A stretch of 64,000 bases of DNA from Escherichia phage 121Q: sequence record NC_025447.1; one strand, given 5' to 3'. Under the pieces are notes generated by a model, which was not told the DNA's origin, did not search any database, and saw nothing but the letters and a program-made list of their open reading frames with translations. The translations under genes and the position numbers were made by a program. Shown one piece after another: positions 1 through 54,294 of the stretch (within the stretch, counting starts at the first letter, position 1; the number at the start of each line of letters is the position of its first letter).

Positions 1-3000
1 AGCACTATTAAGTGTTGAGCTACCAGAAATATTAGCACTAGAAGCAGTAATAGTTCCAGAATCAACTTGTATACCACCAGCAACAACCTGAATTCCACCA
101 GCATTAACTGTTAGTTTACCAGCAGTATTCAATGTATTTGAAACTGTTGTTGCACCAGTTAAAGTTGTAGTGCCAGTTACACCTAAGTTACCAGAAATAG
201 ATGGACTACCTGTAATGTTACCAGTAGTTAGTATCAAATCAGTACCTACGGTAGTGGAGCCAGTACTTTCTAGTGTTACACCGACGATGTTTGCAGAACT
301 TAGGTTAATAGTACCATCAACAGTTAAGTTACCTTGAACGGTTGCATCACCTAGAGAAGTTAATGTCTTCACAGACACATCAGTTGTGCTAAGATCAATA
401 ACACCCGCAGTTAGTGTTCCAGATACTGCTAAATTACCAGTAATCGCGGTATTTTTAGTAATGGATACATTTTCTGCCGCTGAAGTAATAGAACCAACAG
501 TAAGTACACCACCAACAGTTGCGTTATTAGTTACATTTAGAGCAGTTCCAACACCAGATAGTGTTGCTGACCCACCAGTAATTGCACCTGAGATTGAAGC
601 TGTTGCTGCTGAAACATCACCAGAAACTACTGCATTTGTTGCATTTAGAGCAGACACTGTAACTTCAGTACTTTGAACTTTAGGTAGAACGTTGATACCT
701 TCTGCACTACTAACTGTAATAATACCAGTACTTGTTAGAGATTTAACAGATACATCAGCACCACTTAAATCAACTGTACCAGAAACAACAAGATCTCCAC
801 CAATATTTGCTCCAGCGGTAGTAGTAATGGATTTTGCACTTACATCAGTTGTGCTCAAATCAATTGCACCTGGTGTTACTGTACCAGAAACTGTTAGGTC
901 ACCAGTAATAGATGTATTATTGGAAATAGATACACCATCAACGTTACTAATTGTTGGGGTTTCTACAGAAACTGCTTTAACTTTACCTGAAGAAGTTACG
1001 TCAGCTACGGTAGATGCACCAGTAACATTCAAATTAGTAATATTTGCAGTTGTTGAACCAAGGGTTGCAATAGTTGCATCAGTACTTTGAAGTTTAGGTA
1101 GAACACTACTAATTGTGGATTCATTACTAACAATTGCACCAGTACTAGTTAAAGATTTGACAGTAACATCAGCCGTAGTAAGATCTACTGTACCATTAAC
1201 AGTTAGGTTACCACCAATAGTTGCACCAGCAGTAGTAGTAATGGATTTAGCATTAACATCAGTTGTTGCTAGATCGATAGAGCCTGGAATAACTGCACCA
1301 GTAACAGTTAGGTCACCAGTTACATTTGTATTATTGGAAATAGTGACACCACTTGCATTTGAAATGGTTGGGGTAACCAACGATGCAGTTGTAGTTTCAC
1401 CAGTTACAGTTAAAGTTGACCCAACTAGAACAGATGAGCTTGAGTAAATTGTACCCAAATTAGCAGATCCGGTAACAGTTATATCATCAGCATTAACAGT
1501 AGTTGCCGTTATGGTAGTACTATTAAGTACTGGAAGTACGTTAGCATTAACAAGATCATTACTTTTAACAATACCAGAAGTAGTTAATGATTTAACATTA
1601 AGGTCGGCTGCTGATAAATCAAAAGAGCCTTGAACTACTAAATCACCACCAATAGTTGCACCAGCAGTAGTAGTGATTGATTTAGCATTAATATCGGTAG
1701 TGCTCAAGTCTAGAGAACCAACAGTTAAGCTACCAGTAATATCAACATTTTCTGTAAAGTTAGTATTACCACTAATAGTTGGTGCAGTCAGAGTTGTTGC
1801 ACTAATATTAGTACCGTTAATTGTTTGCCCACTTACAGTTCCACTCGCAGTGATAGTAGGGGCCGTTACTTCAGTAGATGCACTAATTGTTGGTGCAGAT
1901 ACAGAAGTTGTACCAGTAATAGAACCAGAACTTACTGAACCAGCGGATAATGCACCAGAAAGAGTTGCAGTTGTACCAGCAATATCACCAGTAACAGTTA
2001 GTTTAGCACCCACGGTAGTGTTACCAGTACTTTCAAGTGTTGCACCTTTAATATTTGCTGCCGCGACAACAGAATTAGGTGTTAGATCCTGCCCACTAAC
2101 ATCAACAGTTAGTCCAGTTACTGTTCCAGTAAATTCAACATCATTAAGAATTGCTTTACCACCAACTTGTAGGAATGGTGTACCTGGAGCTTGTGTTTCG
2201 TTACCAGTAATAGTTAGGTAATCTAGTTTGTTTAGACCGTTACCAGTAATACCATAAGTGGAAAGAGAAGCGTTACCGAAAGTTGCTGTTTTAAGAACGT
2301 TCAATGTAGAAGGAGAAACGACTTCTGATTGAACTTCGTTAGGTAGAATAACTGTTGGGCGTTGACCTGGTGCAGTATATCCAAAACCTAGTTTCACTGC
2401 CGCATCTTGACTATTTTGACCTAAGCTGATAGCTTTAAAGGATGCAGTACTGTTATAACCAGTAATATTAGAACCAAGAGTAACACCACCAACTAATGAA
2501 GTTACACCAGTAACGTTCAAAGATACTGCATTAATATCGTCTAGTTGGAACGTTCCACCAAGAAGACCAGAAACATTAATGTTATTAAAATTAGCAGTAC
2601 CAGTACTTTCGATATTTGGAATAGTTGCAGTTCCGGTTACTTCAAAGTCAGCAACTTTAGTTTTTCCTTTTTGAACTTCTAATAGTGGTGTGTCTGGTGA
2701 TTGTGTATTGTTACCAGAAACTGTTAGATAATCTAATTTGTTTAGACCATTACCAGTAATACCATAAGAAGATAATGACGCATTACCAAAAGAAGCAGAG
2801 GTCAATACTGTCAAGTTTGCAGGTGACATTAGCTCGGACTGAATTTCGTTTTGTAGAATAACAGTTGGGCGTTTACCAGGAGCAGTGTAAGGGAAGCTTA
2901 ATCTGAAGGTTTGTGATTCAGAGTTAGAACCAATACGAATGTCTTTAAAAGTAGCAGTACTGTTAATACCAGTTACGTTAGCACCGAAAGTTACTGCACC

Positions 3001-3612
3001 TTGTTGGTTAGATGCACCAGTAACGTTCAATGTTACTGCATTTAAGTCAGATAGATTAAACTCACCACCAAGTGTACCACTAATTGTCACATCGTTAAAT
3101 GTAGCAGTACCAGTACTACTAATATCTGTTGTACTTACATTAGTAATTTCTGCGGTATTAGCAGTAATTTTATCAAATGCAGCAGTAGTCCCAACATCAG
3201 CAGTAATATTACCTTTAAATGCTGTTGTTTCAGCAACTTCTAAGTTTTTAACTTTAGTTGCTTGTAGAGTGGTTGTACCAGCAGTTTGTGTAAAATCAGA
3301 ACCAACTGATACAGTACCGTTAAAGGTAGCGTTTGAATTAATTGTTGCTGTATCAGACCCGACAACTGCACTACCGATTGTAGTATTACCCTCAACACCA
3401 AGACCACCAGAAAGTGTTGCTTTGCCACCTACATCTAAAGTAGATGTAATGTTGGCAGTTGATGATTCAATGGCAGTAAAAGTTGCATTTGCAAAAGTTA
3501 CAGTACCATTTACAGTTAGGTTATTGTTGAAAACAGCATTTCCTTTGACTAAAAGATCCTTACCAACCGTACCAGCACCAGTAATATCTAAGTCAGTTTT
3601 TATTGAGTACAT
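1..3612 (-). CDS. Long tail fiber protein, partial (3' end lies beyond the window start); Gly/Thr/Ser/Asn-rich with internal tandem repeats
   Basis: Minus-strand ATG at 3610-3612 preceded by GGAGG; my translation begins MYSIKTDLDITGAGTVGKDLLVKGNAVFNNNLTVNGTV and stays open as far as I read. Absent from the ORF track, presumably because it has no stop inside the window. The plus-strand ORFs 386-3682 are its antisense frames. Confidence 0.6.
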   Translation of the reverse strand, partial: MYSIKTDLDITGAGTVGKDLLVKGNAVFNNNLTVNGTVTFANATFTAIESSTANITSTLDVGGKATLSGGLGVEGNTTIGSAVVGSDTATINSNATFNGTVSVGSDFTQTAGTTTLQATKVKNLEVAETTAFKGNITADVGTTAAFDKITANTAEITNVSTTDISSTGTATFNDVTISGTLGGEFNLSDLNAVTLNVTGASNQQGAVTFGANVTGINSTATFKDIRIGSNSESQTFRLSFPYTAPGKRPTVILQNEIQSELMSPANLTVLTSASFGNASLSSYGITGNGLNKLDYLTVSGNNTQSPDTPLLEVQKGKTKVADFEVTGTATIPNIESTGTANFNNINVSGLLGGTFQLDDINAVSLNVTGVTSLVGGVTLGSNITGYNSTASFKAISLGQNSQDAAVKLGFGYTAPGQRPTVILPNEVQSEVVSPSTLNVLKTATFGNASLSTYGITGNGLNKLDYLTITGNETQAPGTPFLQVGGKAILNDVEFTGTVTGLTVDVSGQDLTPNSVVAAANIKGATLESTGNTTVGAKLTVTGDIAGTTATLSGALSAGSVSSGSITGTTSVSAPTISASTEVTAPTITASGTVSGQTINGTNISATTLTAPTISGNTNFTENVDITGSLTVGSLDLSTTDINAKSITTTAGATIGGDLVVQGSFDLSAADLNVKSLTTSGIVKSNDLVNANVLPVLNSTTITATTVNADDITVTGSANLGTIYSSSSVLVGSTLTVTGETTTASLVTPTISNASGVTISNNTNVTGDLTVTGAVIPGSIDLATTDVNAKSITTTAGATIGGNLTVNGTVDLTTADVTVKSLTSTGAIVSNESTISSVLPKLQSTDATIATLGSTTANITNLNVTGASTVADVTSSGKVKAVSVETPTISNVDGVSISNNTSITGDLTVSGTVTPGAIDLSTTDVSAKSITTTAGANIGGDLVVSGTVDLSGADVSVKSLTSTGIITVSSAEGINVLPKVQSTEVTVSALNATNAVVSGDVSAATASISGAITGGSATLSGVGTALNVTNNATVGGVLTVGSITSAAENVSITKNTAITGNLAVSGTLTAGVIDLSTTDVSVKTLTSLGDATVQGNLTVDGTINLSSANIVGVTLESTGSTTVGTDLILTTGNITGSPSISGNLGVTGTTTLTGATTVSNTLNTAGKLTVNAGGIQVVAGGIQVDSGTITASSANISGSSTLNSA
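676..1800 (-). repeat. Three tandem copies of a ~400-bp coding repeat inside the long fiber gene
   Basis: Blocks starting near 676, 1088 and 1520 share long near-identical stretches (for example accagcggtagtagtaatggattttgcacttacatcagttgtgctcaaatc versus accagcagtagtagtaatggatttagcattaacatcagttgttgctagatc); boundaries approximate. Confidence 0.5.
2219..3210 (-). repeat. Two tandem copies of a ~480-bp coding repeat inside the long fiber gene
   Basis: Copy 1 about 2219-2700 and copy 2 about 2729-3210, both starting taatcta(g/a)tttgtttagacc...accagtaataccataag; encoded units share ...PGxRPTVILxNExQSExxSP...FGNASLSxYGITGNGLNKLDYLT.... Boundaries approximate. Confidence 0.5.
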
Positions 3613-3706
3613 TTATACCCTCCATTATAACCTTGTTAATATGTATATATTTAGTTTTATTATGCTGTTATCCAACAATTAATATGTTATTTGACAAAAG
3701 CAAATA

Positions 3707-3749
3707 TAATAAAAACCAGACTTATTTAGAACAAGTCTGGTTAATTTTT
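3707..3749. terminator. Bidirectional terminator hairpin between two fiber genes
   Basis: Stem CCAGACTT/AAGTCTGG (3716-3740) flanked by an A-run and a T-run. Confidence 0.55.
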
Positions 3750-4646
3750 TTACTTACCAGAGATGACAATCTTACCACTGAAAGAAATATCAGAAGTGAA
3801 GATTACATCACCAGTACTACTAATTTGTGTATCAGTCACTACCAATTCAAATGGAGATGACGAAACACTCCCAGGTGTTTTATTTGCATAAATTGAAATA
3901 TACAAATTATCTGGTGTTTGATTGTGTTCAGATGCAGGAATAGTGATTGTAAAATCACCATCACTAGAAACCCAATCTGCTTGGTTTACCAATTTACTAT
4001 AAGGTACTGTCATTGTTGTTGCTCCTATAATGTTTACTTTAACACTTGCATAATCTGTGATTTGACCAATCACATCAATTGTTATATCCCCAATACCACT
4101 AACTGTTACTGTGGTTTGGAATACTGATTCCAATGCAACATTACCTGGGTCACCTTGTAGTTGGATCATAATATCAGAACCTCTACCATGAACTGATTCT
4201 GGTAGTGTGTAAGTATAATGATCAGTAGTATCTGGCACTAATGTAAATGCAGAAACAGGAACTATTTCAGTAGTTACATATGAGCTATCAGTCCCAGGTG
4301 AGCTACCTTTAAATGGTTTCCAAATACCAAGATCTTTAATATAAATTTGAAGAACATTAGTACTATCAACCAAAAAGTAAACGTCACCATCTAGACCGAT
4401 CGAATCGGATGGTGCTGTTGTTCCACGTAAGATACCAGAACTACCACCACCACTGTGTGCGTTTAAATATCCCAATGTAACCAAGTGTGTGTTTGCAGTT
4501 GGTTCACCTGCTGAAATTGGAAGAAGTTGTGTTCCTGAGTAGTTTTGAATTTGCACAACACTACCATTTGTGGTAATCTGTGCACCATTCTTCCCAAGAA
4601 TGAAGGACTTCTTCATGGTTCCTTCTAAATTAGAAAAAACTGCCAT
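3750..4646 (-). CDS. Receptor-binding / tail fiber protein with N-terminal module shared with the 4663-6804 gene
   Basis: 298 aa; N-terminus MAVFSNLEGTMKKSFILGKNGAQI nearly identical to the neighbouring gene; GGAG ribosome-binding site upstream; terminator hairpin immediately downstream. Confidence 0.55.
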   Translation of the reverse strand: MAVFSNLEGTMKKSFILGKNGAQITTNGSVVQIQNYSGTQLLPISAGEPTANTHLVTLGYLNAHSGGGSSGILRGTTAPSDSIGLDGDVYFLVDSTNVLQIYIKDLGIWKPFKGSSPGTDSSYVTTEIVPVSAFTLVPDTTDHYTYTLPESVHGRGSDIMIQLQGDPGNVALESVFQTTVTVSGIGDITIDVIGQITDYASVKVNIIGATTMTVPYSKLVNQADWVSSDGDFTITIPASEHNQTPDNLYISIYANKTPGSVSSSPFELVVTDTQISSTGDVIFTSDISFSGKIVISGK

Positions 4647-4662
4647 TTTAATATAATCTCCT

Positions 4663-6804
4663 TTATGGTAGGGTTATGTAAGTTACGGGTTGGGCAGCTT
4701 TTAATGCTGCACCAGCGGCAGTTGCTGTTATGATAGGATCTGCAATATCAATTCTATATACGTTGTTTACAACATACACTGCACGAGTTATATACGTTCT
4801 CAAATCACCACCATTTTCACCAGCACCGGATATAATGATCTCAGTACCAGCAGCTTTTGCATATTGGTTTTCACCCCATGACACACCCAATGCTTCTATG
4901 TATGTTTGTCCTGCTACCGTTTGTCTAATTGTGTCATATTTTCCGAAAAAAGAACCACCAACAGTTACAATATATTTTCCACCCGATTGTTTATGAATAA
5001 TCGTGCCTTCAGAGAAATAGCGTCCCCCAGGAAAAGTATCGTATGGAATATAATATTGCTCAACTACAGGTATCAGTACTGGGCCACGGTGACCTGTACC
5101 ATCGATTGCAGTTGTAACTTTAAAGTTATTAGATGATTGGTCTATTCTGTCTACATACATTTTAGAAAAACTATATTTTGAAACATTACAATCATCTTGA
5201 ACAACACAGTTAGTCCAATTAGTATAAGTATATTTAGAGCGAGTATAGATACCACCACCTTCGCCTTCGGTAGAGAGGTGTTGACCAATTACATCTAATT
5301 CTTTAGTTCTAATATCACTAAATTTAGATGATGATGGCAAACCACGCCAAAGGATTTTAGAACAAGTGATATTGCTCAATTCTGTATTATTTAACCAATT
5401 ATCAGAACCGGAAGTATAAACAAGTATAGAAGACTCTGGAATATAGAGATTAGAAATTTTAAAGTTTCTAGGTGGTCCAGCAAAACGACCAGAAGTTACA
5501 CCCCAGTTTATTGAAACCATTCTATTTGTGATAGAAGGATCATTAAGCAAATGACCAGTCAACCCATCAATAATGAATTCTTTCGAACCATAAGTTATAA
5601 CACCAGCAGTGGTTAATCCAGTACCAACAGAAACTAAAGATGATGGATAAACTTCATTATTAAGTATTTTAAAGTCCATTCCTAATTCAACGTGTATACA
5701 TTGTCTAACATTATATAGTCTGTTATTTTTAATAACAAAGTTTCTGACATATTGTGTATCTGGTGCATCTAAACCATAAGGACCAGAACCAGCAACGCCA
5801 ATACCAATGCCCCAGTTTGAAAGTGGGATTGGAGCGTTAGAACCATCAACGTTTTCAATTACGTTTCCTTCAATCACAAAACCATCAGGATAATGTGAGT
5901 TAATTACGTTTAGTTCAATTGCATCACCATAGATATCATGAATATGGTTATATGAATATCTACCAACCTTCATTTTCTCACCAGTACCTTGTTGAAGAAC
6001 ACCATACTTACATTGGGTCATTTCATTAAAGCAAAAATCTATTGTTCCTGGTTGTGTCATACCTTGCATTAAAAATGCAGCAGTACTTGTGATGTTTATA
6101 AATTTATTAAAATAAAACTTACCATCTCCACCGAAGAATTTTAAATAACATCCAGTAAGTGTTGCAAATTGTATTTGGGAATTAATAACAGATACCATAG
6201 TACCACCGTTACCAGTAATAGTTCCCCCAAACCAAGTTACATCTTCTAGGTATATTGCAGTTTTGATACGGTAATTACCACCAGCCTGAATTTGGATTTT
6301 ATTTTCTTTAGCATAAGCAGCACATAAATTTACAGCAGCAGTGTCATCAGTTTCGCCATCACCTTTAGCACCAAATTCTTCTGGTGTTATATAAAACTGG
6401 GCCTGTTGAACTGTACCTCCAGTAATAAGTCCGATGAAATCACCACCATTTTTACTGGATAGAACTTTTTTATTAATGTATAATGATTTTACCCATGTAC
6501 CATTACTTTTTGCAAAAATATCAACAATACCATCTTCATCAATTTGAAAATACGTATTATTGTTCTTTCCTACATCATCGGTAGGGGGTACAACACCAAA
6601 TAATGCATTAGGGTTATCTTCAAGATATTTTACGTTAACTGCTGAATTAGGGTCAGATGAAGTTCCTACCTTCAGTGGTAGGAACTGTTCTCCTAGATAA
6701 TCTTTTATAGAAACTGAATCATTGATAAAATTTATTGAAGCACCTTTTTTCCCCAATATGAATTTGGGCTGCATAGTTCCTTCAAAATTAGAAAATACTG
6801 CCAT
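4663..6804 (-). CDS. Tailspike-like protein with pectate-lyase-type beta-helix motif (putative polysaccharide depolymerase)
   Basis: 713 aa; shared N-terminus MAVFSNFEGTMQPKFILGKKGASI; GDGETDDTAAV motif (encoded 6340-6363) typical of pectate lyase 3 / tailspike beta-helix domains; GGGAGG ribosome-binding site. Confidence 0.6.
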   Translation of the reverse strand: MAVFSNFEGTMQPKFILGKKGASINFINDSVSIKDYLGEQFLPLKVGTSSDPNSAVNVKYLEDNPNALFGVVPPTDDVGKNNNTYFQIDEDGIVDIFAKSNGTWVKSLYINKKVLSSKNGGDFIGLITGGTVQQAQFYITPEEFGAKGDGETDDTAAVNLCAAYAKENKIQIQAGGNYRIKTAIYLEDVTWFGGTITGNGGTMVSVINSQIQFATLTGCYLKFFGGDGKFYFNKFINITSTAAFLMQGMTQPGTIDFCFNEMTQCKYGVLQQGTGEKMKVGRYSYNHIHDIYGDAIELNVINSHYPDGFVIEGNVIENVDGSNAPIPLSNWGIGIGVAGSGPYGLDAPDTQYVRNFVIKNNRLYNVRQCIHVELGMDFKILNNEVYPSSLVSVGTGLTTAGVITYGSKEFIIDGLTGHLLNDPSITNRMVSINWGVTSGRFAGPPRNFKISNLYIPESSILVYTSGSDNWLNNTELSNITCSKILWRGLPSSSKFSDIRTKELDVIGQHLSTEGEGGGIYTRSKYTYTNWTNCVVQDDCNVSKYSFSKMYVDRIDQSSNNFKVTTAIDGTGHRGPVLIPVVEQYYIPYDTFPGGRYFSEGTIIHKQSGGKYIVTVGGSFFGKYDTIRQTVAGQTYIEALGVSWGENQYAKAAGTEIIISGAGENGGDLRTYITRAVYVVNNVYRIDIADPIITATAAGAALKAAQPVTYITLP

Positions 6805-6818
6805 TATGACATCCTCCC

Positions 6819-7970
6819 TTAAATATTATCTTGAATCGGTTGGATAGGAGCTTGCCATGAAAGAGTACAAATAATTTCCATTTTTCCATAAGGACTGTTG
6901 TTAACAGAATCGTTGAATACACATGAAATAATTTCATCAACATCGGATGCTGCATGATTAGTTTCATTAACAATAAAACGCATCTGACGATTGATATCAA
7001 AGTAGGAAGTTGGTGCAATTACCGTCCCGCCAATATCTTCTTGTGCTTCACCACCAAAACGTACAAACATATCAGTTACTGGAAGAGAATAAGGTTGTAT
7101 AACGTTTACATCAATATTAGAAACTACATATCCAGCAGGACATGTACCAATAACTAATAGTGCGTTAGTCCATGAGCTATCTATGGTATTTCTAATAGAA
7201 ATTGTATCTTTACCTGGTGCACCTGGTTCGCCTTGTATACCTTGAATACCTTGCTGGCCTTCTTTACCACGGAATAGAATACCCTCACTCCACTCTTTTG
7301 AAGGAGGGGTAGTTGTAGTTACTTCATCAACATAATATAGTTTTCCATCAGTGTTGTTATAAAAACAATAATCAACTGGAAGATTTTCAATACTTGGAAA
7401 TTGATCACCACTGCTATCAATATGGAAACGACCACGCGGACCTTGTTCACCACGGAAAGGTATACCATCACTCCAAGTAGCAGTTACACTTTGATAGAAA
7501 TAAAGTTTACCATCTTGAGTATTATAAAATGTATAGTTATTAAAAAGACCAGTTGTTGGGAAAGTAGTTCCAGCACTATCAATGTGGAACGGCTTACCCG
7601 CTTCACCCGTATCACCTTTACCAAACTCAACACTAATCCATGTACTTGTCGGATCTTGTGCATCATTTGATTTAAAGTATAGAGTACTGGTATTGTTAGC
7701 CAAGCTTAAGTAGCACCACCCAAGTGGTTCACCAACTTTAAATTGTTCGGAAGGAATTTCAAAACCAATCTCATTAGGATAAAAGTTTTTACCATTCTCG
7801 CCATTCTGTCCTACAACAAGACCTAAATCTTGAATTGTGTTATCTGCATAGGTTACAATTAAATGCCCAGCACCATTAATAACTAGACTTTTGATGCCGG
7901 AGTTATTACATGAACCATTAAATGAAATTGTCATAATATTTCCCTTGTATGAGTTAATGTCATATACCAA
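6819..7970 (-). CDS. Tail fiber protein with collagen-like Gly-X-Y triplets
   Basis: 383 aa; GEQGPRGR and GKEGQQGIQGIQGEPGAPGKD collagen-like runs, each preceded by a duplicated ~60-aa unit (FHIDSAGTTFP... and FHIDSSGDQFP...). Confidence 0.5.
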   Translation of the reverse strand: MVYDINSYKGNIMTISFNGSCNNSGIKSLVINGAGHLIVTYADNTIQDLGLVVGQNGENGKNFYPNEIGFEIPSEQFKVGEPLGWCYLSLANNTSTLYFKSNDAQDPTSTWISVEFGKGDTGEAGKPFHIDSAGTTFPTTGLFNNYTFYNTQDGKLYFYQSVTATWSDGIPFRGEQGPRGRFHIDSSGDQFPSIENLPVDYCFYNNTDGKLYYVDEVTTTTPPSKEWSEGILFRGKEGQQGIQGIQGEPGAPGKDTISIRNTIDSSWTNALLVIGTCPAGYVVSNIDVNVIQPYSLPVTDMFVRFGGEAQEDIGGTVIAPTSYFDINRQMRFIVNETNHAASDVDEIISCVFNDSVNNSPYGKMEIICTLSWQAPIQPIQDNI

Positions 7971-16050: not shown

Positions 16051-19000
16051 TTACTTAACTAATAATATATTTTTAATATCATTACCACTAACTTGTAGAC
16101 TATCAGTGTATACTGAAAGATCTATAGTGTAACTATTTTGTGTGTAACGTTTTAACATATCATAATTACCTAAATTAATTCCATTGAAAGAATATGTAGT
16201 ATTAAGTTTAAAATCATGTTCTGCACTATACATTACACCACGGAGTAAATTATTTGCATTTCTAACTTCAACTTTTTCATATCCAATCGATATAATATCA
16301 TTCATGTTTGCGGCTGAACCGGATAAAACATTATTTCTAATACTATAAGGACTTATTGATTTAGGTTGAGAAACATAGGTTGTATTTTCTTCACTAATGG
16401 TTGTGATGTTAGTAACAGTACCACCAACAACACCGATATACATACCGTCAACCATTGGGAATCCATAAACCCATATCCCTTCATTATTTCTAAACGGTTG
16501 AATAACACTTGAATCATATTCGATAACGTTGATTTCTAAACTATCAGTCATTTTAGTTCTTGCCAATTCACTAAGAACTCCCGCACCCGTAATTGGTAAG
16601 TTATAACCGTTATCGATAGTAATTCCATCAACATCAAATATTTCATTAGAGATTATCCAAACGTCAACGTCATCTGGTGTTATTCCGTCATTGTACTTAC
16701 CACCATTTAAAGTAGTATCGTAGAAAACATCATAATTAATTACATCAATGGTGTAATTTCTATTTTGTTCATACAATTTAATACCATTCTTGACAAATTC
16801 AGGGTCAGCAAATGTTCTAACACGAACAATGTTCAATGCTAGAGGCTGTACTGGCTCATTTTGTTGTGCAAGAGTGATGTTATCATAACGGAGAACTGCA
16901 CCAGTACTCTCATCAATCAATTCAATCGTTTCCTTACCTGTATTTCTTACAGTGAATAGGATCGGAGTTGTATTGTTTTTGATGTTAGATACACGCAAGA
17001 TTGTTTCCCATGTGTGATTTTGATATCTCACAAAATCTTCACCATCAGGAGTGAAAATCATCACCTTATCACCATCAGATAGGTCATTGTCAACTATTTC
17101 TGCTTCAGTTAAGCTATTAATAGATCTCACACGATAGAAATATTTTTCATCAAACTTCGATGTTGTTTTATTAATATCATTTTCAATCTTAGCATATGAA
17201 GGAATACTTACAATTGCTTCTGTATGTTTATATGGATTGATAATTGCCATACCTTCAGTTTGATATCTGCTGTTATCACGTAATTGTACAAGAGATACAT
17301 TGTCAAACCCATATCCATCAACTGTAAATCTAATTTGACCTACATCACGCCCAGAAGGGTTTATGTCAGATATATCCACAATATAAGGATCAACTTCATC
17401 ATCTTTAACTTCCCATTTTATTGAAGAAGTTTGAGATTCCAATGCTAGGTTATCAAATGCATTCATATCATTGAAGTACTTAGCTTCAGTAATACTATCA
17501 AGTATATATTGATAATCAGAATACATTGGATTATTTTGATCTAGTGGTAAATCATCAAGATTTATTTCAGCTAGTTCAACCATTTCACCATTTGTGATAA
17601 AATAATCTTCCATGAAATCATCAATACTTTGTTCATCAGGTATACTTTGATATACACCGTTAACATTTAAGTAAACATATTTTCGTGGAATCATTGTAAT
17701 TGCATAGATATCAATTGGGGTCTTACTAAGAATCTCTTCAGCTTTTTCGTACTTATCAGTAGCGTCTTTGTCGAATAACCCTCTCATACCTGCTAATACG
17801 TGAATAGCATCAGTATAGAAACGGGTATCACCACCTACTTCATCATAACGATAAACATATACACCATACTCAACTTCAAGTTTAACTTTTACTTCATAGT
17901 CTGATGCGTCAGGATTTTTATCTTTAATTAATGAAATGTATTTTTGATACAATTCACTGCTTATTTCAAAATATCCATAGTTATAATCATTACTAGAAGA
18001 AAAGCCTAATGGAAGTCTAGTACTAGGATTGTCATTATAAGTAAGTCCACTAAATCCACATCCAACTTCATCGTGAATTTTCTCATCACTTATATCTTTA
18101 TAAAGTTTCAAACGGTTTGCCAATGTGTTATACTGAACATATTGTCTAAGGTCAGTAAACATATCGTTATGCGTTGATTCTTTATAAACACGTTCCAATG
18201 TAGCAGTGAATTCATCAGTTGCTTCTAAATCTTCCGCATGGTCTTTATACCACTGGTTAACGCCATATGCTGTTCCTAGTGTTACATCCAATTCTGGATA
18301 GTAGATTTGCATTTGATAAGCAATAAGAAGATCGAAAGTTTCTTCACTATATTCTGGGAAAGAATATATATAACGTTGTAATTCATAGTTACTAACAGCA
18401 TCCTTTTCATTGGATTGATATTTGTTATTAACACTTACTAATTCATTTATGCTTGCCAAATCTTCATTTGGTTTACACTGAATATTATCATAATGCATAA
18501 TAATATCAATTTCTTGGAATCTTCTATTTGGTGTAACGAAATCACTTGGTAGTGAACCTACCTGTTCCCATTTTTGGGTAATTTCATTAAATTGAGCGTA
18601 CTCATAATCCCAAATATCTTTTTCAGTTTTGATCCAAGAACCGTCAACGAAAATATATCCATTAGGATCTAAATCATTACATAGACCTTTTATTAAATCA
18701 TCATCAGATGTCTTTTGCTCTATTTGTGAACGAATTTTAGTTCTATAAGGTTTAACTTCTTCAAAATATTCAACAATTTGATTAATCAAATTATCGTTTG
18801 AATAGTTTTGAACTAATGATTGTTCCAAACCAACAATATAGATATATGATGTTTTAAATACCCAATCCACAACACTTTGTTCAACATGTACATATTTGAC
18901 CATATCAAAAACAATTTCGCTTTGATGTAAATCGAAAGAATTTTTGAGTAAAGCTAGTGCTTTACGAACGTTGATTTCACGATTGCTTAGTGATCCATTA

Positions 19001-22000
19001 TCATTATGAACACTATAATCTGCGTAAAGCATATCATTGAGTTCAACTGTACTGTTTTCACGACCAATCGCTTTCCAATAAATTGAATCGCGTGATTGTG
19101 ATTTAATATACAATGTCCAAATGTTTTCACTATCGGTAACTCTGATAATATCGCCAACTTGGTAGTTTTTAGTATTAGCATCTTCTAAGCTTGACTCTTG
19201 TGTATAAGTCGTGTTACTATCATACCCAACATCATACCAATCAGCATATGACCAGTACTGAGTCATGTCCAATGAAGTTCCCAGTGATTCAACATAATCA
19301 GATTGTTTAATCATTTTATGTTGACCCTCACCTTTGTTCTCTAACGTTATAGTAACAACACTACCCGCGTTTGCTGGACTATTCATTAACTGAATATATC
19401 CATTTTCGTCGAAGTGAATAAAATAAACAGCACTAGAAGTTAATGGATTTGGTAGATATCCACTAGTACTTAAAATAACAGCGTCATTTTCTTTAAATTT
19501 ATCACTTTCAACTGCAATAACTAATTCATTATTGTAAGACAATACACGGAAAGAAACTTCATTCGGATTAACTTCAGTGGTTTTAACATTAAACACATCT
19601 TCCATAACAACACTATTAGTGGTTATGTTTTGTGACCTATAATAATTATTAGCACTTTCTACAAAGTTTCTACGAGCTTCTATAACATTTTGGAACCAAG
19701 TTTTGTTTGAACCTAAACCGTTATCAACATCTGGATATAATAAATTAATCACAGAACCTGATTCAGTTGTTTCTTGACCAATTAGTGAGTTCCACATTGA
19801 ATCCCAAATTAGTGGGTTAAAGTTATAGCTGTCACCTTCTTTACATAGTTGATACTGGTCATGTTTAACAACTTCAGTACTATCCATGTAATAAGAAACA
19901 GTTAAAATACTGGTATCATCATTCACTTTAAATTGCATATTACTAAGAATAAACGAGTTTTCATTGATTGGAGCGAACCAAGGAATGTTTAGCTGTGTTG
20001 GATCTTTAATAATACGAGCAATGTCAGTACATGATTTTGTTCTGGTATGTAGTGGTGGTACATAAATTGTATCACGTACCCAGAAATAGTATTTTGTCAC
20101 ATAACTATCAGTTGAACTATCATATTCCAAAAATGTACTATAATTATCTTCAAGTGCAGTTCCACTTGGTAGATACATAGTATTATTTTTGTTTTTCTTA
20201 GCAACATCTTTACAGTATTTGTCCCAGTTATATGGCTCAACTGGTGAACAAACCCACTCTAACACATCAATTGTACTATGTGGTAATAAACGACCCCAGT
20301 TGTAACGTTTGTATTCATTGGTTGCATCAATATCAACATTACCGTCTGCGTCATAAATTGCACGAGTATAATCCAAATAAAATGCAGTGCTAGTGTTCCA
20401 CCATACTTGACCAACTTTATCAGCACCCCAAGCCTGGATTAACTCTCCATTACTATTATACTGTGCAGGATCAACTGGTGAAGTATATGTTACGTTTTGC
20501 ATAGCCGCACCTGGAATAACACCATTAATTGGGTCATAAACGTTTAGATATAGCTCAGTAATGTTAGTACGTTCATCATATGTCGTTGGACGATCAAATA
20601 AAGTACTTTGTGGTGCTTTAAAACTATATTTCTTGTCAATGTAAGCTTGACGTTCATCAGTACTGGCAAAACGTGATACATAACGATACAAACGTGGACG
20701 TGTATCTGGATCAGTAAATTCAATATCAATAGAAGTGTCAAATGGAACTACCATAACTTTAGGATCAGAACCAGCAGTATAATATTGACTTTCTACTGTT
20801 AAAGTATCTGGCATAAAGTTAGTTTCATCAACAAAATAATAATAATCACCATCTTCAAGTGGTACATTATCAGTTAAAGTTACTTTACAAAATTGTTCAG
20901 CATACACATCGGTATTTTCAATAGGTGTTATAGAAACCATTTGCACATTAGTATCAACCAATTCAAAAATGTTCCACAAACCATTACCGTCTTTAAACAT
21001 CCACACAGATTCAGGATTTTCACCTTTACCATTAGTATAAGTTATGCGGTCATTATATGCAGTACTGAAATCTTTTGTTGTGTACGATACTTCATCCAAT
21101 GTTACTGGACCAATATCTGGAAGTTGGATGTTTTCACTTCTTCCACTACGCATTGGGAATGAGAACTTACCATTTGGACGTGTAATCCAACGAGGATCTT
21201 TACCCTGCTCACCGAAGTATACAATATGATTACCATTACCATTTGAAGTTGCATTTACATCAAAAGAAACCATTTGAGGTTGTTGTTTAAATTGGTCATT
21301 GATTAGTTTAAATTGAAGGTTTTTCTTACCATCAATATTACCATATGTACCAATTTTAAATGCCCATTCTTGTAATGCTTTATATTCATCAGTGTCATAT
21401 GATTTAGAAACACGAAGTACACGTTCTAAAACTTGGTTAGTACCTTTATCGTGAATGAATCCTTTATAGAAATCAACACGACTAACATCACTGCTAATCA
21501 TACGCTGTAGATAATCACGAGATTGATAACCAATCAAATGGTTTGACAACTCTTGTAATTGTACATCACTTACTGGAGTTTCACTATCATAATAATGTTG
21601 GAAATCCGACACTAATTTTTCAAATGATGGTAGTGTTCCAGCTTCCAAGATAATAAATCCAGGAGCTTGTAGGCGACCAGTCCATGAACCAGTAATATAT
21701 CCATACATTTTAATTAGTTCTTGAATAGAACCATATGTTGGCTGATAAATGTAATCACCAAAAATAGTTTTATCATCAAAAATAACAGCATGTTCATATG
21801 AACACAAACTTAAACGAATCAATGCAATGCGTTTATTAGATTCTAAAGTTCTAACAGTGAAGATATTTCCAATACGAGAAGTTTCAATTTCATATTGGCG
21901 AATACCTTGGTTATTATCATCAAGTAATGACCATACACCACCATTATTTTGCGTAATAGATTGTACTGAACCAAAGTCTGCCCCAAATTTAGCGTTTGCA

Positions 22001-25000
22001 GCACTTGGGGTACAAGAAATAAATTCACCAGTTACTAGAGAATTCTGACTCCAGATCACGAAATCTTTAGCAATAGTGTTCCAATCTTGTTGAGCACCAC
22101 TATCATTTACATCTTCAAAAATCCAACCATGTTCTTTAAGATATTCACCATATCCACAAATAAAAGTATAAACTTCTTGGTAACTATTGAAAACTTTACC
22201 ATATTCAATTGAAGCTTCAGACTTCCATTCATTATAATGAACAACATTACGGTTTTCCAATTTAAGAGTTACTTTTCTACCATTTTTTACGGGAAGTTTA
22301 TATTTAAATTTAGCACCAACTAGATCATATCCATCAATCTGATATGCACTACCATTCCAAGTAATTTTGATCGCACTCATTTGCTCATCACGGATATTAT
22401 TAGAACGAACAAGACCAATGGTTTGGTTTTCTTGTGAAATAAGACCGAAAGATTTAGCATTGAATGTTAGCTGATCTGCTTTAGTAAATCCTCCAATTTT
22501 ATGACCAACATTTATATAAGAAGAACGAACTACATCCCCATACTTGGTGGTAATATTTTTATTTTGATACATCAAATGGTCACTTACAAACATTTGATAA
22601 CCAATTGTTCTTGTGCTATTTTCACCATGAACTACTGTATTTTTATCAAAATTAATACGCTTACGTGTATCACCATAAAGGAATTGTGAACCATCAGTGA
22701 ATACTTCTTTTAAGTTATCATTGCGGGTATCCCAGAAATAGTTAGCAAATTGTGCTGGTTTAGCTTTATACAAAAGCATCATTTGGTCATATGCAAACAA
22801 TGTAGTGTTCATGTATGTAAATTCCATGTCACCCATATCACCATATGTCCAAGGTTCTGCTCTATGATTTAAAGATCCAGACACTAAACCTAAAATTTCA
22901 GGTGCAATATATTCAACCACACAAATATCAATACCAGAAGATGTTTTATTTCCAGTTTTTGTAATTTTGAATGGCTGTACACCAAATCTTTTATATTTGT
23001 CATATTGACCACGACGATCACCAAATAAAATAGTTCCAGTACTGCTATCGCCAATAGTTCCGTCAATATCCCAAAGACCACTAGGAACTAAATCACCTTG
23101 CTCATTCATAACAAGTGCTTCATATACATATACAACATCACTATCACGTTCACCAACTTGAACAGCCGTTGGTTCGTATTCTTGGTTCCACCAAGTTGGA
23201 CGTTGTGTAAAGCCAAACATTTCCCACGGATGGGTAGCTGGGCGATATGTACCATATTGGTCAGTGTAAATGGCACGCCATGAACCACGTGCAGGAATTT
23301 CAGTACTTTGACCATTAACTACATAATAAGTGCCAGTATAGTTCCAAGTTCTCCAATTGTTAGGATCATAATCATGTGTACTATTACTGATACCATTAGT
23401 TGCGGTGAAGTTAATGTATCCACGTAGTAATAATGTTTGTTTCTCTTCAGCACTATATTCAGTTTTAGTGAAATATGGTGTAGGGAAAAGGTCATCACTA
23501 TTCAATACTGGTACGTAATCAACATCTTTGAATTTATTATCAATACTATTAAAAATTCTATTTTCTAATTCATATACAACATCATCCATTTTATCAACAC
23601 CATTGATAACACGGTATGCTTTGGAAATAATACCAGTATGACTGATGTTATAACAGCTTGGTTTACTACCAGCAGTGAGGAATGTCGCTTTTTCTGGTAC
23701 ATATGCTTGAAGAATACCTAAGAACTGTGGTGTTGGTGGTATAAATGCACGAATGAATCCAGAAGTACTTCCAACATTATCATAATAGAATGGGAATGAA
23801 CTATCACGTCCCATATTAATAGTAGTTAAAATTGCATCAACAATGTTTGCAGCACTATTTTGTAAAAAGTCTGATGGATTTTCATCATACATACGAAGCA
23901 TTTGTGTATTAAATTTATTAATGAATCTAAAATATTCAGATTGCATAAACATAGTTGCTTCAAATAAATCAATATCTTCATTTGCAGTATGTGCCATCAA
24001 TGGAAGCATAGATGCTTCATTTTGGATAATTTTAGTACCTACGCCATTATTAACCAATCCTTTAGCCAAACGTTCTTCATAGTCATTGAAATCATCAGAA
24101 GAACCACGTGTAATGTTCTTTTGAATAATATCCTGAAAATGTAAAGTGTAGTCACCTTGGTTAATGTATATAATATTGGAATTGTATGGGTTATTTTGTA
24201 AGTTAATTGGAACTTCATATGCACCTAATTCTTTATTAGGAGTTACAGTACTGCTATAAGTTCTAATTTGAATAACTGAATCTTCATCCAAATCTACAGT
24301 GCTATCTAAGGTGATACTTTGAACTTGACCTTTTGATACATTTTTGGTATATTTTGATACATCAACACCATCAACAACAACTTCAATTATGTCAGAATCA
24401 TTATCTAAAACTTTTTGTGCTAATTCGAATGTGTGGTCATATTTTACAATCTGAACACCATCACCAGTGATTGGATGCCAGTCTAGATAAGTTTCGCGGT
24501 CTGCTTTATAGTACTGATAGGTTCTATCAACTTCAATAACATATGCATACATACCATCAACTGGTTCTTTAAAAACTTCCATATCATAAACAGTACTGAA
24601 TACACGATACATATCAGTACGTTTGACTTGTGGAGTTTGTTTTACAAATTGTTTAGAGTACTCTTCTGAACGAACCCAATCGGTTTGAAGATTCATTTCA
24701 TTATTTTCATCAATAATGTTATAATAGTATAAACCATCAATTTCAACTTCTTTTCCAAGATGGTCATAGGTATAACGTTGGGATTGTAAAAAGTTTTCAT
24801 AAATGTAATAATTATAATCACCAAGTTCAATGTTATATCCATATACACTATCAGTTGCATAGTTGTAATTTATTTTAAAACCAAACAACTCTGAACCTTT
24901 AAAGTTACTGGATGGATATGTAGTACTGTTGTCAAGTTTGATACCATTACGATCATAAAGTTGGAATTTAGGGAATATGTTAACACTAGTTTTTGATTGT

Positions 25001-26052
25001 GCACGAACCCACAAAGAACCATTCCAGTACATAGAACTGTTACCATACTCATTACCTTTGGTGATTAGAACAACATCACCATCTTGAGGTTCACCACTTG
25101 GGCGTGATTCGGTTTCTTCTTCTGGATCTAATGCCAAACCATAAACACGAGTACCATCCTGCATTTTTTTGACATATACATTATAAATTCTATTATTTTC
25201 ACCATTGTTACCAATACTGGTGAATAGAATACGCATACCATCTTGTGGAATAATACCATCAATACGGATGCCACTATTAATATCTTTTTGTACGATATCT
25301 TCAGGTTTGATTATATCTGAGAATAGATCGACAGTTCCACGGAATTTTGTACCGTAGTTAATTAGTTCAATATTTTTATTATATTCGATAATTGGAGCAC
25401 GGGCACGAATAAAGCGAGAATCTTGCATTAATTCTTCAGTTAAAATTGAACCATCTTCTAAAGTTTCACCTAAAGTATACCAAAAGTTTTGTAGTGACCA
25501 TGTATTACCATTAAGTGCACCACGTTCCATTACAATGTAATCAGGTGAAGTAATATTATAAGAGTTTTTAGTATCCCAAAGATATGAGCTAAAATTGTTC
25601 ATTTTATTTGGGTTAATAGCTGGAGTCCATGCATAAAACTTACCGTTGAACAAACGGCTTTCATTATCGGTTAGTGCTCCATAATGATTCATGTATCCAA
25701 CTAGATCATCATAAAATTGAATTGAACGAATTGTCGAATCATCATTTTTTGAGACGTAAGCAGTGGACAACTGATAAAGTTGACGTGCTACAGTACTTTC
25801 ATGTAAGAAGATATTACCAGCAGCGGCAGGAGAACCCATATCACCAATATAGCCGTCAACTAATTCGTTTTCAGCCGGATTAAACCATTGTTGAATAACA
25901 TCATCACTGACTTTTTGAATATCTTCTAAGCCTTGCATCCACTCAGGCAATCTTTTAATAAAAAGCTTCTTCTGTACTGCTTCAGCCATCTGTGTAGGTT
26001 GAAACTTAAAATTATTAGTCATTTTTGGACTCCATATAATTCGTTCATTCAT
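16051..26052 (-). CDS. Giant virion structural protein (3333 aa), probably baseplate or fiber associated
   Basis: Uninterrupted 10-kb ORF directly downstream of the gpJ/gp6-like gene in the same operon; no enzymatic motif recognised. Start is ambiguous: ATG at 26052 has no Shine-Dalgarno, the in-frame ATG at 26022 has GGAG upstream. Confidence 0.6.
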   Translation of the reverse strand: MNERIIWSPKMTNNFKFQPTQMAEAVQKKLFIKRLPEWMQGLEDIQKVSDDVIQQWFNPAENELVDGYIGDMGSPAAAGNIFLHESTVARQLYQLSTAYVSKNDDSTIRSIQFYDDLVGYMNHYGALTDNESRLFNGKFYAWTPAINPNKMNNFSSYLWDTKNSYNITSPDYIVMERGALNGNTWSLQNFWYTLGETLEDGSILTEELMQDSRFIRARAPIIEYNKNIELINYGTKFRGTVDLFSDIIKPEDIVQKDINSGIRIDGIIPQDGMRILFTSIGNNGENNRIYNVYVKKMQDGTRVYGLALDPEEETESRPSGEPQDGDVVLITKGNEYGNSSMYWNGSLWVRAQSKTSVNIFPKFQLYDRNGIKLDNSTTYPSSNFKGSELFGFKINYNYATDSVYGYNIELGDYNYYIYENFLQSQRYTYDHLGKEVEIDGLYYYNIIDENNEMNLQTDWVRSEEYSKQFVKQTPQVKRTDMYRVFSTVYDMEVFKEPVDGMYAYVIEVDRTYQYYKADRETYLDWHPITGDGVQIVKYDHTFELAQKVLDNDSDIIEVVVDGVDVSKYTKNVSKGQVQSITLDSTVDLDEDSVIQIRTYSSTVTPNKELGAYEVPINLQNNPYNSNIIYINQGDYTLHFQDIIQKNITRGSSDDFNDYEERLAKGLVNNGVGTKIIQNEASMLPLMAHTANEDIDLFEATMFMQSEYFRFINKFNTQMLRMYDENPSDFLQNSAANIVDAILTTINMGRDSSFPFYYDNVGSTSGFIRAFIPPTPQFLGILQAYVPEKATFLTAGSKPSCYNISHTGIISKAYRVINGVDKMDDVVYELENRIFNSIDNKFKDVDYVPVLNSDDLFPTPYFTKTEYSAEEKQTLLLRGYINFTATNGISNSTHDYDPNNWRTWNYTGTYYVVNGQSTEIPARGSWRAIYTDQYGTYRPATHPWEMFGFTQRPTWWNQEYEPTAVQVGERDSDVVYVYEALVMNEQGDLVPSGLWDIDGTIGDSSTGTILFGDRRGQYDKYKRFGVQPFKITKTGNKTSSGIDICVVEYIAPEILGLVSGSLNHRAEPWTYGDMGDMEFTYMNTTLFAYDQMMLLYKAKPAQFANYFWDTRNDNLKEVFTDGSQFLYGDTRKRINFDKNTVVHGENSTRTIGYQMFVSDHLMYQNKNITTKYGDVVRSSYINVGHKIGGFTKADQLTFNAKSFGLISQENQTIGLVRSNNIRDEQMSAIKITWNGSAYQIDGYDLVGAKFKYKLPVKNGRKVTLKLENRNVVHYNEWKSEASIEYGKVFNSYQEVYTFICGYGEYLKEHGWIFEDVNDSGAQQDWNTIAKDFVIWSQNSLVTGEFISCTPSAANAKFGADFGSVQSITQNNGGVWSLLDDNNQGIRQYEIETSRIGNIFTVRTLESNKRIALIRLSLCSYEHAVIFDDKTIFGDYIYQPTYGSIQELIKMYGYITGSWTGRLQAPGFIILEAGTLPSFEKLVSDFQHYYDSETPVSDVQLQELSNHLIGYQSRDYLQRMISSDVSRVDFYKGFIHDKGTNQVLERVLRVSKSYDTDEYKALQEWAFKIGTYGNIDGKKNLQFKLINDQFKQQPQMVSFDVNATSNGNGNHIVYFGEQGKDPRWITRPNGKFSFPMRSGRSENIQLPDIGPVTLDEVSYTTKDFSTAYNDRITYTNGKGENPESVWMFKDGNGLWNIFELVDTNVQMVSITPIENTDVYAEQFCKVTLTDNVPLEDGDYYYFVDETNFMPDTLTVESQYYTAGSDPKVMVVPFDTSIDIEFTDPDTRPRLYRYVSRFASTDERQAYIDKKYSFKAPQSTLFDRPTTYDERTNITELYLNVYDPINGVIPGAAMQNVTYTSPVDPAQYNSNGELIQAWGADKVGQVWWNTSTAFYLDYTRAIYDADGNVDIDATNEYKRYNWGRLLPHSTIDVLEWVCSPVEPYNWDKYCKDVAKKNKNNTMYLPSGTALEDNYSTFLEYDSSTDSYVTKYYFWVRDTIYVPPLHTRTKSCTDIARIIKDPTQLNIPWFAPINENSFILSNMQFKVNDDTSILTVSYYMDSTEVVKHDQYQLCKEGDSYNFNPLIWDSMWNSLIGQETTESGSVINLLYPDVDNGLGSNKTWFQNVIEARRNFVESANNYYRSQNITTNSVVMEDVFNVKTTEVNPNEVSFRVLSYNNELVIAVESDKFKENDAVILSTSGYLPNPLTSSAVYFIHFDENGYIQLMNSPANAGSVVTITLENKGEGQHKMIKQSDYVESLGTSLDMTQYWSYADWYDVGYDSNTTYTQESSLEDANTKNYQVGDIIRVTDSENIWTLYIKSQSRDSIYWKAIGRENSTVELNDMLYADYSVHNDNGSLSNREINVRKALALLKNSFDLHQSEIVFDMVKYVHVEQSVVDWVFKTSYIYIVGLEQSLVQNYSNDNLINQIVEYFEEVKPYRTKIRSQIEQKTSDDDLIKGLCNDLDPNGYIFVDGSWIKTEKDIWDYEYAQFNEITQKWEQVGSLPSDFVTPNRRFQEIDIIMHYDNIQCKPNEDLASINELVSVNNKYQSNEKDAVSNYELQRYIYSFPEYSEETFDLLIAYQMQIYYPELDVTLGTAYGVNQWYKDHAEDLEATDEFTATLERVYKESTHNDMFTDLRQYVQYNTLANRLKLYKDISDEKIHDEVGCGFSGLTYNDNPSTRLPLGFSSSNDYNYGYFEISSELYQKYISLIKDKNPDASDYEVKVKLEVEYGVYVYRYDEVGGDTRFYTDAIHVLAGMRGLFDKDATDKYEKAEEILSKTPIDIYAITMIPRKYVYLNVNGVYQSIPDEQSIDDFMEDYFITNGEMVELAEINLDDLPLDQNNPMYSDYQYILDSITEAKYFNDMNAFDNLALESQTSSIKWEVKDDEVDPYIVDISDINPSGRDVGQIRFTVDGYGFDNVSLVQLRDNSRYQTEGMAIINPYKHTEAIVSIPSYAKIENDINKTTSKFDEKYFYRVRSINSLTEAEIVDNDLSDGDKVMIFTPDGEDFVRYQNHTWETILRVSNIKNNTTPILFTVRNTGKETIELIDESTGAVLRYDNITLAQQNEPVQPLALNIVRVRTFADPEFVKNGIKLYEQNRNYTIDVINYDVFYDTTLNGGKYNDGITPDDVDVWIISNEIFDVDGITIDNGYNLPITGAGVLSELARTKMTDSLEINVIEYDSSVIQPFRNNEGIWVYGFPMVDGMYIGVVGGTVTNITTISEENTTYVSQPKSISPYSIRNNVLSGSAANMNDIISIGYEKVEVRNANNLLRGVMYSAEHDFKLNTTYSFNGINLGNYDMLKRYTQNSYTIDLSVYTDSLQVSGNDIKNILLVK

Positions 26053-54254: not shown

Positions 54255-54294
54255 GAATAAATATAGTATATATTAATCATAAAGGGATTTATAC

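Follow-up and report, generated by a model that had tools for sequence, protein, structure and literature searches.

The gene and its orthologues

In the window analysed here, a 64,000-nucleotide (nt) stretch of Escherichia phage 121Q (sequence record NC_025447.1), a minus-strand open reading frame (ORF) at 6819..7970 probably encodes a segmented fibre protein in which short collagen-like Gly-X-Y runs alternate with small beta units. The ORF holds exactly the peptides quoted in a first-pass annotation of the same DNA. Its real start is most likely the ATG at 7934, because a Shine-Dalgarno-like AAGGGA lies 6 nt upstream, the coverage of PHROG 13565 ('tail protein') agrees with it and orthologues mostly begin with MTISF; translation probably does not begin at the TTG that opens the longer ORF at 7970. 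The whole PHROG profile (positions 1–375 of 375) aligns to residues 13–383 of that long ORF with an expectation value (E) of 2.2e-220. Residues of the protein are numbered here from the Met of ATG 7934, which gives 371 amino acids (aa), and the features are as follows.

6819..7934, minus strand: coding sequence of the candidate fibre protein, 371 aa plus stop
7941..7946, minus strand: Shine-Dalgarno-like AAGGGA, 6 nt upstream of ATG 7934
7812..7934, minus strand: N-terminal module, aa 1–41, the most conserved part and the proposed virion-attachment end
7785..7811, minus strand: connector 1, aa 42–50, GQNGENGKN, three Gly-X-Y triplets
7617..7784, minus strand: unit A, aa 51–106, a diverged third repeat copy
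7590..7616, minus strand: connector 2, aa 107–115, GDTGEAGKP, three Gly-X-Y triplets
7452..7589, minus strand: unit B, aa 116–161, FHIDSAG...IPFR, with a WW-like core
7425..7451, minus strand: connector 3, aa 162–170, GEQGPRGRF, three Gly-X-Y triplets
7269..7424, minus strand: unit C, aa 171–222, HIDSSG...ILFR, with a WW-like core (LP185–186, Y189, G197, YY200–201, W215)
7206..7268, minus strand: connector 4, aa 223–243, GKEGQQGIQGIQGEPGAPGKD, seven Gly-X-Y triplets
6822..7205, minus strand: C-terminal all-beta jelly-roll domain, aa 244–371, the proposed trimerisation nucleus and distal knob

At the DNA level the region shares 99% identity with the Escherichia jumbo phages UB, PBECO4, G17 and Sharanji, and 98.6% with phAPEC6 (genus Asteriusvirus); by its sequence the stretch is that of a PBECO4/phAPEC6-like jumbo coliphage. 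Full-length matches to the protein were found by tblastn in 70 phage records, among them RaK2, K64-1, GAP32, CBB, BF, 7t3, XbC2 and XaC1, at 43–100% identity, and a large protein collection gave 62 full-length homologues (42–91% identity). These RaK2-like phages infect Escherichia, Klebsiella, Salmonella, Erwinia, Serratia, Yersinia, Pectobacterium, Cronobacter and Xanthomonas. Direct orthologues at the same locus, 57–99.7% identical, include phAPEC6 gp253, PBECO4 gp546 ('tail protein'), CBB_228, GAP32 gp222 and RaK2 gp062, all annotated merely as hypothetical, structural or tail protein. The gene product is a known but uncharacterised virion protein of these phages; the papers on phAPEC6 (PMC7247149), CBB (PMC5259590) and RaK2 (PMC3622015) do not describe its domain architecture, and the word 'collagen' is absent from them. 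In Escherichia phage CMSTMSU (MH494197.1 327980–329102) the match is broken into two pieces that lie under two annotated ORFs, and the BFVD entries A0A2Z5HHX0 (244 aa) and A0A2Z5HI36 (133 aa) correspond separately to the front part and to the jelly-roll domain; these cases may reflect a split or frameshifted orthologue or an error in sequencing.

Gly-X-Y connectors

Both Gly-X-Y runs noticed in the first-pass annotation are present, and the count of two given there rises to four, all in phase. At least four runs of at least three triplets arose with P=5e-5 in 20,000 shuffles of the protein, and a seven-triplet run in none of them. Across 63 orthologues, Gly is invariant at every third position of connectors 1–3 unless the column is deleted, and the length differences in each of these connectors are multiples of three in all 63. 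Connector 4 ranges from five to seven triplets; it stays in phase in 41 of the 63, while 21, which form one length class, carry a one-residue interruption. The X and Y positions are mostly occupied by Asp, Glu, Lys, Gln and Asn, with Pro at about 9–10%, a composition usual for the collagen-like sequences of bacteria and phages, in which hydroxyproline is lacking. The only match to the Pfam Collagen family (PF01391) is the longest run, at residues 235–253 of the long ORF. The conservation across orthologues is evidence that the Gly-X-Y phase is functional.

A related protein from another jumbo phage (P0064, 416 aa), encoded on a contig with the same gene order as the fibre locus, retains unit A and both ends of the protein, namely the N-terminal module and the C-terminal domain, but in place of units B and C it has about 190 aa of uninterrupted collagen repeat. 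Since this swap took place at the same locus, repeat units and collagen appear to be interchangeable as shaft elements. Elsewhere in the window, a 540-aa plus-strand ORF at 54283..55902 carries two four-triplet Gly-X-Y runs, GQSGRNGSQGAP and GTTGAAGRHGHS. No other ORF of the window contains the unit, the N-terminal module or the C-terminal domain.

Three repeat units

The duplicated unit beginning with FHIDS, first described as two copies of 60 aa, is found in both of the positions proposed for it, yet it is shorter (about 47–56 aa) and occurs three times. BLAST of the whole protein against itself returned the identity hit only, and the units were therefore compared as separate segments. Formal alignment bears the repeats out: units B and C align with a Smith-Waterman z of 20.4 (0 of 2,000 shuffles as good), and their family sub-alignments with an hhalign score of 99.4% and E 2.5e-21. 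At the DNA level the two copies are only about 65–78% alike, and that in patches, and both are present in all orthologues; the duplication is therefore old. Unit A compared with B or C alone, whether as single sequences or as family sub-alignments, gave nothing significant (hhalign E 0.37 and 0.011). It is recovered at full length and in register by a broad unit-family profile that includes 105 units from other proteins (92%, E 5e-7; as a control, the N-terminal module reaches 9%), and its strand pattern in the AlphaFold model matches that of units B and C. It is this match to the broad profile that gives an architecture of three units and four connectors.

Mean pairwise identity among the orthologues is 0.70 for the N-terminal module, 0.50–0.57 for the units and 0.59 for the C-terminal domain, a flat profile with no hypervariable tip. 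Residues 13–45, in the N-terminal module, are homologous to a beta module of about 30 aa that is tandemly repeated between Gly-X-Y runs in two unrelated proteins, P0065 (486 aa) and P0066 (631 aa). In these proteins the element, G[IV]..[IV].IN..G.L[IV]VTY.DG...DLG.V.G, occurs in at least seven copies, and in P0066 it accompanies BspA-type leucine-rich repeats. It is a second uncatalogued 'collagen-flanked' module.

A widespread unit with a WW-like core

A profile built from 55 B and C units was searched against 1.84 billion representative proteins and returned 293 clusters at E up to 1e-3. The listed matches outside the jumbo-phage orthologue set number 149, one of which (P0067) is probably a distant orthologue. 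Eighty of the 149 are partial; nine of these sampled in Pfam were mostly poly-WW-domain proteins, plus a PQQ-type propeller, and the partial matches were left out of the family count because they are not fibre proteins. Among the matches listed, at least 63 proteins (clusters) carry a total of 105 full-length units, and 71 of these units have Gly-X-Y runs of at least two triplets at both ends, 21 at one end and 13 at neither. Unit-bearing proteins contain Collar (PF07484) or Peptidase_S74 domains. In P0072, five units alternate with GKGDKGD-type runs and a Phage Tail Collar domain follows them; both P0069 and P0070 terminate with an S74 intramolecular chaperone, and units are combined with longer collagen in P0077 and P0091. 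Neither the unit nor the N-terminal module nor the C-terminal domain is covered by a Pfam or NCBIfam model. The unit of about 50 aa is thus a building block that recurs widely in phage fibres and is so far uncatalogued.

When the unit profile was compared with all Protein Data Bank (PDB) sequences, about 60 of the 66 matches were WW domains, including SMURF2 (8e-7), PRP40 (5e-5), YAP1 (2e-4), TCERG1 (1e-3) and the WW prototype (2e-3), and profile positions 15–46 span the whole domain. Pfam WW (PF00397) is also the top family for the units, matched by 6 of the 55 with a best E of 0.0035, which is under the gathering threshold. An independent alignment of ten canonical WW sequences gave hhalign scores of 95% with unit C, 87% with unit B and 83% with the broad profile, against at most 0.4% for controls. 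The AlphaFold2 model places three short strands (134–138, 143–148 and 153–154 by DSSP) at the position that corresponds to the WW domain. The pattern LP..[WY]....G..YY......W is shared across the whole domain. On the other hand, the first Trp is a Tyr in the unit, the terminal Pro is a Gly, extra N- and C-terminal strands are present, and the context is that of a viral fibre. The core of the unit thus resembles a WW domain, a resemblance with which shared descent and convergence are both compatible. More speculatively, and with the odds clearly against it, the unit might have a true WW fold and represent an unrecognised viral branch of the WW superfamily, acting as a 'collagen clamp' that would bind a polyproline II (PPII) strand of the neighbouring chain and hold the short Gly-X-Y segments in register. 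A full-text literature search for WW domains in tail fibres gave nothing relevant.

The C-terminal domain and structure models

An AlphaFold2 model of the monomer, based on a 63-sequence alignment, has a mean predicted local distance difference test score (pLDDT) of 81. The three units reach 80–91 and the C-terminal domain 84–96; the connectors fall below about 50–65, as is expected because the chain was modelled without partner chains. No solved structure exists for any sequence relative of the full protein or of P0072. Residues 244–371 match no Pfam family at E up to 10, C1q (PF00386) and TNF included. In the model this domain is a jelly roll whose fold is most similar to those of trimeric phage cement proteins, namely Ralstonia GP4 (8h89_J), H. 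pylori KHP40 gp16 (7dou_4) and cyanophage Pam1 (7eel_H), at 7–13% identity; unlike the present protein, these stand alone, with 124–155 aa and without a fibre. The non-orthologous BFVD neighbours are phage proteins labelled C1q-domain, collagen triple helix, collagen VIII-like or tail fibre.

A collagen stalk with a C-terminal trimeric jelly-roll head is known from the C1q/collagen VIII–X family, Bacillus BclA and the phage PRD1 spike P5. The present protein is similar to C1q/TNF-type heads in having the jelly-roll fold C-terminal to the collagen stalk. It differs from them in that it has no Pfam sequence match, its stalk is interrupted three times by beta units, and its structure is nearer to the phage cement proteins.

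Virion evidence and gene neighbourhood

Two orthologues have been detected in virions by mass spectrometry: phAPEC6 gp253, which is 98.7% identical to the present protein, with 14 unique peptides and 65.6% coverage (PMC7247149), and CBB_228 with 13 peptides and 44% coverage (PMC5259590). The CBB baseplate bears short fibres of 28.6 ± 2.7 nm with terminal globules, and its tail bears hairs of about 119 nm (PMC5259590). Taking 0.286 nm per residue for the 48 collagen residues and adding nominal sizes for five globular elements, we obtained a rough fibre length of 25–30 nm, near that of the 28.6-nm baseplate fibres and far from that of the 119-nm hairs. We would guess that the protein is a short baseplate fibre of the CBB type; the length match is at the level of coincidence.

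The fibre gene heads a unit of three genes, in which it is followed by a tailspike gene and the gene of a 298-aa protein.

4663..6804, minus strand: 713-aa tailspike of the pectate-lyase type ('colanic acid degradation'), whose start lies 12 nt past the fibre stop
3750..4646, minus strand: 298-aa virion protein, PHROG 10468, orthologue of CBB_227, third gene of the unit
3714..3742, minus strand: strong terminator-like hairpin (13 pairs, then a T-rich tail) at the end of the three-gene unit

The tailspike and the 298-aa protein have their first ~105 residues in common (MAVFSN[FL]EGTM..FILGK.GA...; BLASTP E 2e-19), and this common N-terminus looks like a docking module. In CBB, RaK2 and a metagenomic locus (L005), a PHROG-10468 gene with the start MA(V/I)FSNLEGTMKK directly follows the fibre gene; in the present phage, the tailspike with the common N-terminus sits between the two. 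A motif seen by eye in both downstream proteins, GD.YF..D....IY.K..G.W, is not detected by the unit hidden Markov models (E above 1).

The conserved gene order runs through a 3333-aa virion protein, ClpA, a 501-aa virion protein, a T4-gp15-like tail completion protein, a NUDIX protein and three divergent virion genes to the fibre gene, beyond which lie variable fibre and spike genes. The 3333-aa ORF, at 16051..26052 of the window on the minus strand and beside the ClpA-like gene, is the orthologue of the 382-kDa phAPEC6 gp245 and of CBB_236. At the other end, the phAPEC6 locus (L001, 1–3613) holds the end of the 180-kDa tail fibre gene gp256 on the minus strand, where positions 1–3700 of the window, like PBECO4, have plus-strand ORFs such as 2939..3682; the fibre and spike complement therefore differs between phages that are otherwise 98–99% identical.

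One metagenomic jumbo-phage contig (L006) encodes at 6001–6813 (SRR30543657) a 270-aa protein, P0063, in which the first ~110 aa, that is, the N-terminal module, connector 1 and unit A, are fused in frame to DUF4376. This contig has lost the equivalents of CBB_227 and CBB_226 as well as part of that of CBB_225. P0063 was considered as a case of a swapped receptor-binding tip, and this was rejected: the locus represents a deletion that fused the fibre gene to a CBB_225-like DUF4376 gene, and since it is a deletion fusion and not a tip swap, P0063 is weak evidence for N-terminal anchoring.

Discussion

The reading that we prefer, with a probability of about 0.72, is that the gene encodes a structural component of the virion of RaK2-like jumbo myophages, a segmented, collagen-like trimeric fibre associated with the tail or baseplate. 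The suggestion made at the outset, of a segmented trimeric fibre with short collagen-like connectors, is supported by the presence of orthologues in virions, the conserved Gly phase, the P0064 swap, the jelly-roll C-terminal domain with phage C1q and collagen proteins among its BFVD neighbours, and the company that the unit keeps with Collar domains and S74 chaperones, both of which are typical of trimeric fibres. Association with the tail or baseplate is the most likely location, because the gene lies in a neighbourhood of tail completion and receptor-binding genes and heads a unit with a tailspike.

In the arrangement that we propose, three identical chains would run in parallel. The C-terminal jelly roll would trimerise and, as in other collagen-like proteins with a C-terminal trimeric head, set the register for the Gly-X-Y segments, which would then zipper from C to N. 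The shaft would be a string of beads, formed by the N-terminal beta module and three WW-like units of about 50 aa separated by the three-triplet connectors, and the seven-triplet stalk would carry the knob. Stalk and minimal connectors alike would form triple-helical segments. As the connectors are too short to be stable alone, we propose that the flanking beta elements, the WW-like units and the N-terminal module, serve as trimer nodes and keep them in register. The fibre would be attached to the tail or baseplate by its N-terminal module, with the knob distal, and the conserved knob may bind a conserved surface structure or the common N-terminal module of the downstream proteins.

The trimer itself is inferred. 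An AlphaFold2 run of a pseudo-trimer, in which residues 160–371 were repeated three times in a single chain joined by 48-aa XTEN-type linkers (15-sequence alignment), did not assemble; the predicted template modelling score was 0.27 and the pLDDT 60, with connectors at 25–37, below the monomer values, an outcome that counts neither for nor against a trimer. Several observations weigh against the proposed picture. The C-terminal domain is as conserved as the rest of the protein (0.59 mean identity) across very different hosts, which is unusual for a host-specific receptor-binding tip, and the structures nearest to it are those of capsid cement proteins and not of proteins of the tail. The Pfam Collagen match scores 16.8 bits, under the gathering threshold of 27.2 bits, because the runs are too short for a 60-position model. 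Runs of three triplets are far below the length of known autonomous triple helices. Finally, RaK2 gp062 was predicted to be structural but was undetected in RaK2 virions (PMC3622015).

The conservation of the knob across hosts also fits a different function, in which the fibre would be an adaptor or branching stem, its jelly-roll knob docking the 298-aa PHROG-10468 protein and the tailspike and not a receptor. The N-terminal ~105 aa that these two proteins have in common (E 2e-19) would be the natural partner, the PHROG-10468 gene directly follows the fibre gene in CBB, RaK2 and L005, and contig L006 lacks both the distal half of the fibre gene and the PHROG-10468 gene. Yet a single deletion can explain both adjacency and co-loss, neither of which proves contact, and the common N-terminal module could equally dock on the baseplate. 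We regard such an adaptor as unlikely.

The similarity to cement proteins raises a second alternative, a 'hair' or decoration fibre of the capsid or tail, whose jelly roll would bind capsid or sheath in the manner of a cement protein, with the N-terminus pointing outward. This would explain some of the unassigned fibres on phAPEC6, 121Q and CBB. phAPEC6 has unassigned, apparently trimeric capsid fibres as well as rings of tail fibres (PMC7247149), and the high mass-spectrometry coverage suggests an abundant protein. However, the N-terminal module is the most conserved part of the chain, the neighbours are tail completion and receptor-binding genes, and jelly-roll similarity at 7–13% identity is generic. 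The CBB hairs, at about 119 nm, are too long for a chain of 371 aa (PMC5259590), and the base of the phAPEC6 capsid fibre looked dimeric and lay at hexamer centres (PMC7247149). The gene is also kept in RaK2, and according to the CBB paper whisker-like tail structures are undescribed for other published Rak2-like phages (PMC5259590). Taken together, these points make a decoration fibre distinctly improbable.

That the Gly-X-Y runs are mere flexible, glycine-rich linkers between independent beta domains, with no triple helix, would suit the three triplets of three of the four runs, their modest Pro content (about 9–10% of X and Y positions), the sub-threshold Pfam score and the lack of a confident AlphaFold2 structure, but it is very improbable, since nothing would oblige a flexible linker to maintain a three-residue phase, Gly is invariant and insertions and deletions come in multiples of three in 63 of 63 orthologues for each of three connectors, P0064 has a bona fide 190-aa collagen repeat in place of units B and C, and 68% of the homologous units in unrelated proteins are flanked by Gly-X-Y on both sides.

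Segmented trimeric fibres of the general kind proposed here are already known, and the example characterised by experiment is the set of side-tail-fibre proteins EPclA–D of enterohaemorrhagic E. coli prophages, which intersperse collagen triple-helix segments with trimer modules of other types and have a C-terminal trimerisation domain (PMC3368898). EPclA is experimentally trimeric, and in EPclB a Pf2 repeat lies between two collagen domains (Ghosh et al. 2012, PMC3368898). PfN (PF08400), Pf2 (PF03406), PfC (PF06820) and PCoil are absent from the present protein in Pfam at E up to 1. It also differs from the EPcl proteins in that its collagen segments are 9–21 aa long, as against 27–322 aa, the interposed module is an uncatalogued WW-like unit, and the head is a jelly roll. 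A full-text literature search for collagen-like sequences in jumbo-phage baseplates gave nothing relevant.

The gene has been present in public genomes and proteomes before; what is new is the architecture of its product and the widespread, Gly-X-Y-flanked WW-like fibre module. Collagen-like segments are well known in phage fibres, but minimal three-triplet connectors alternating with a small beta module are undescribed in the literature searched. If the units do act as WW clamps, they would permit trimeric fibres built like beads on a string, with a length adjustable in steps of three residues, and the WW-like unit would offer a compact registration module for engineered collagen-like proteins. 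Should a WW fold indeed grip PPII strands here, a classic eukaryotic peptide-binding domain would be linked to viral fibre assembly. A definition of the unit would improve the annotation of phage receptor-binding proteins, and the protein described here could be one of the fibres that are still unassigned on the 'hairy' RaK2-like jumbo phages.

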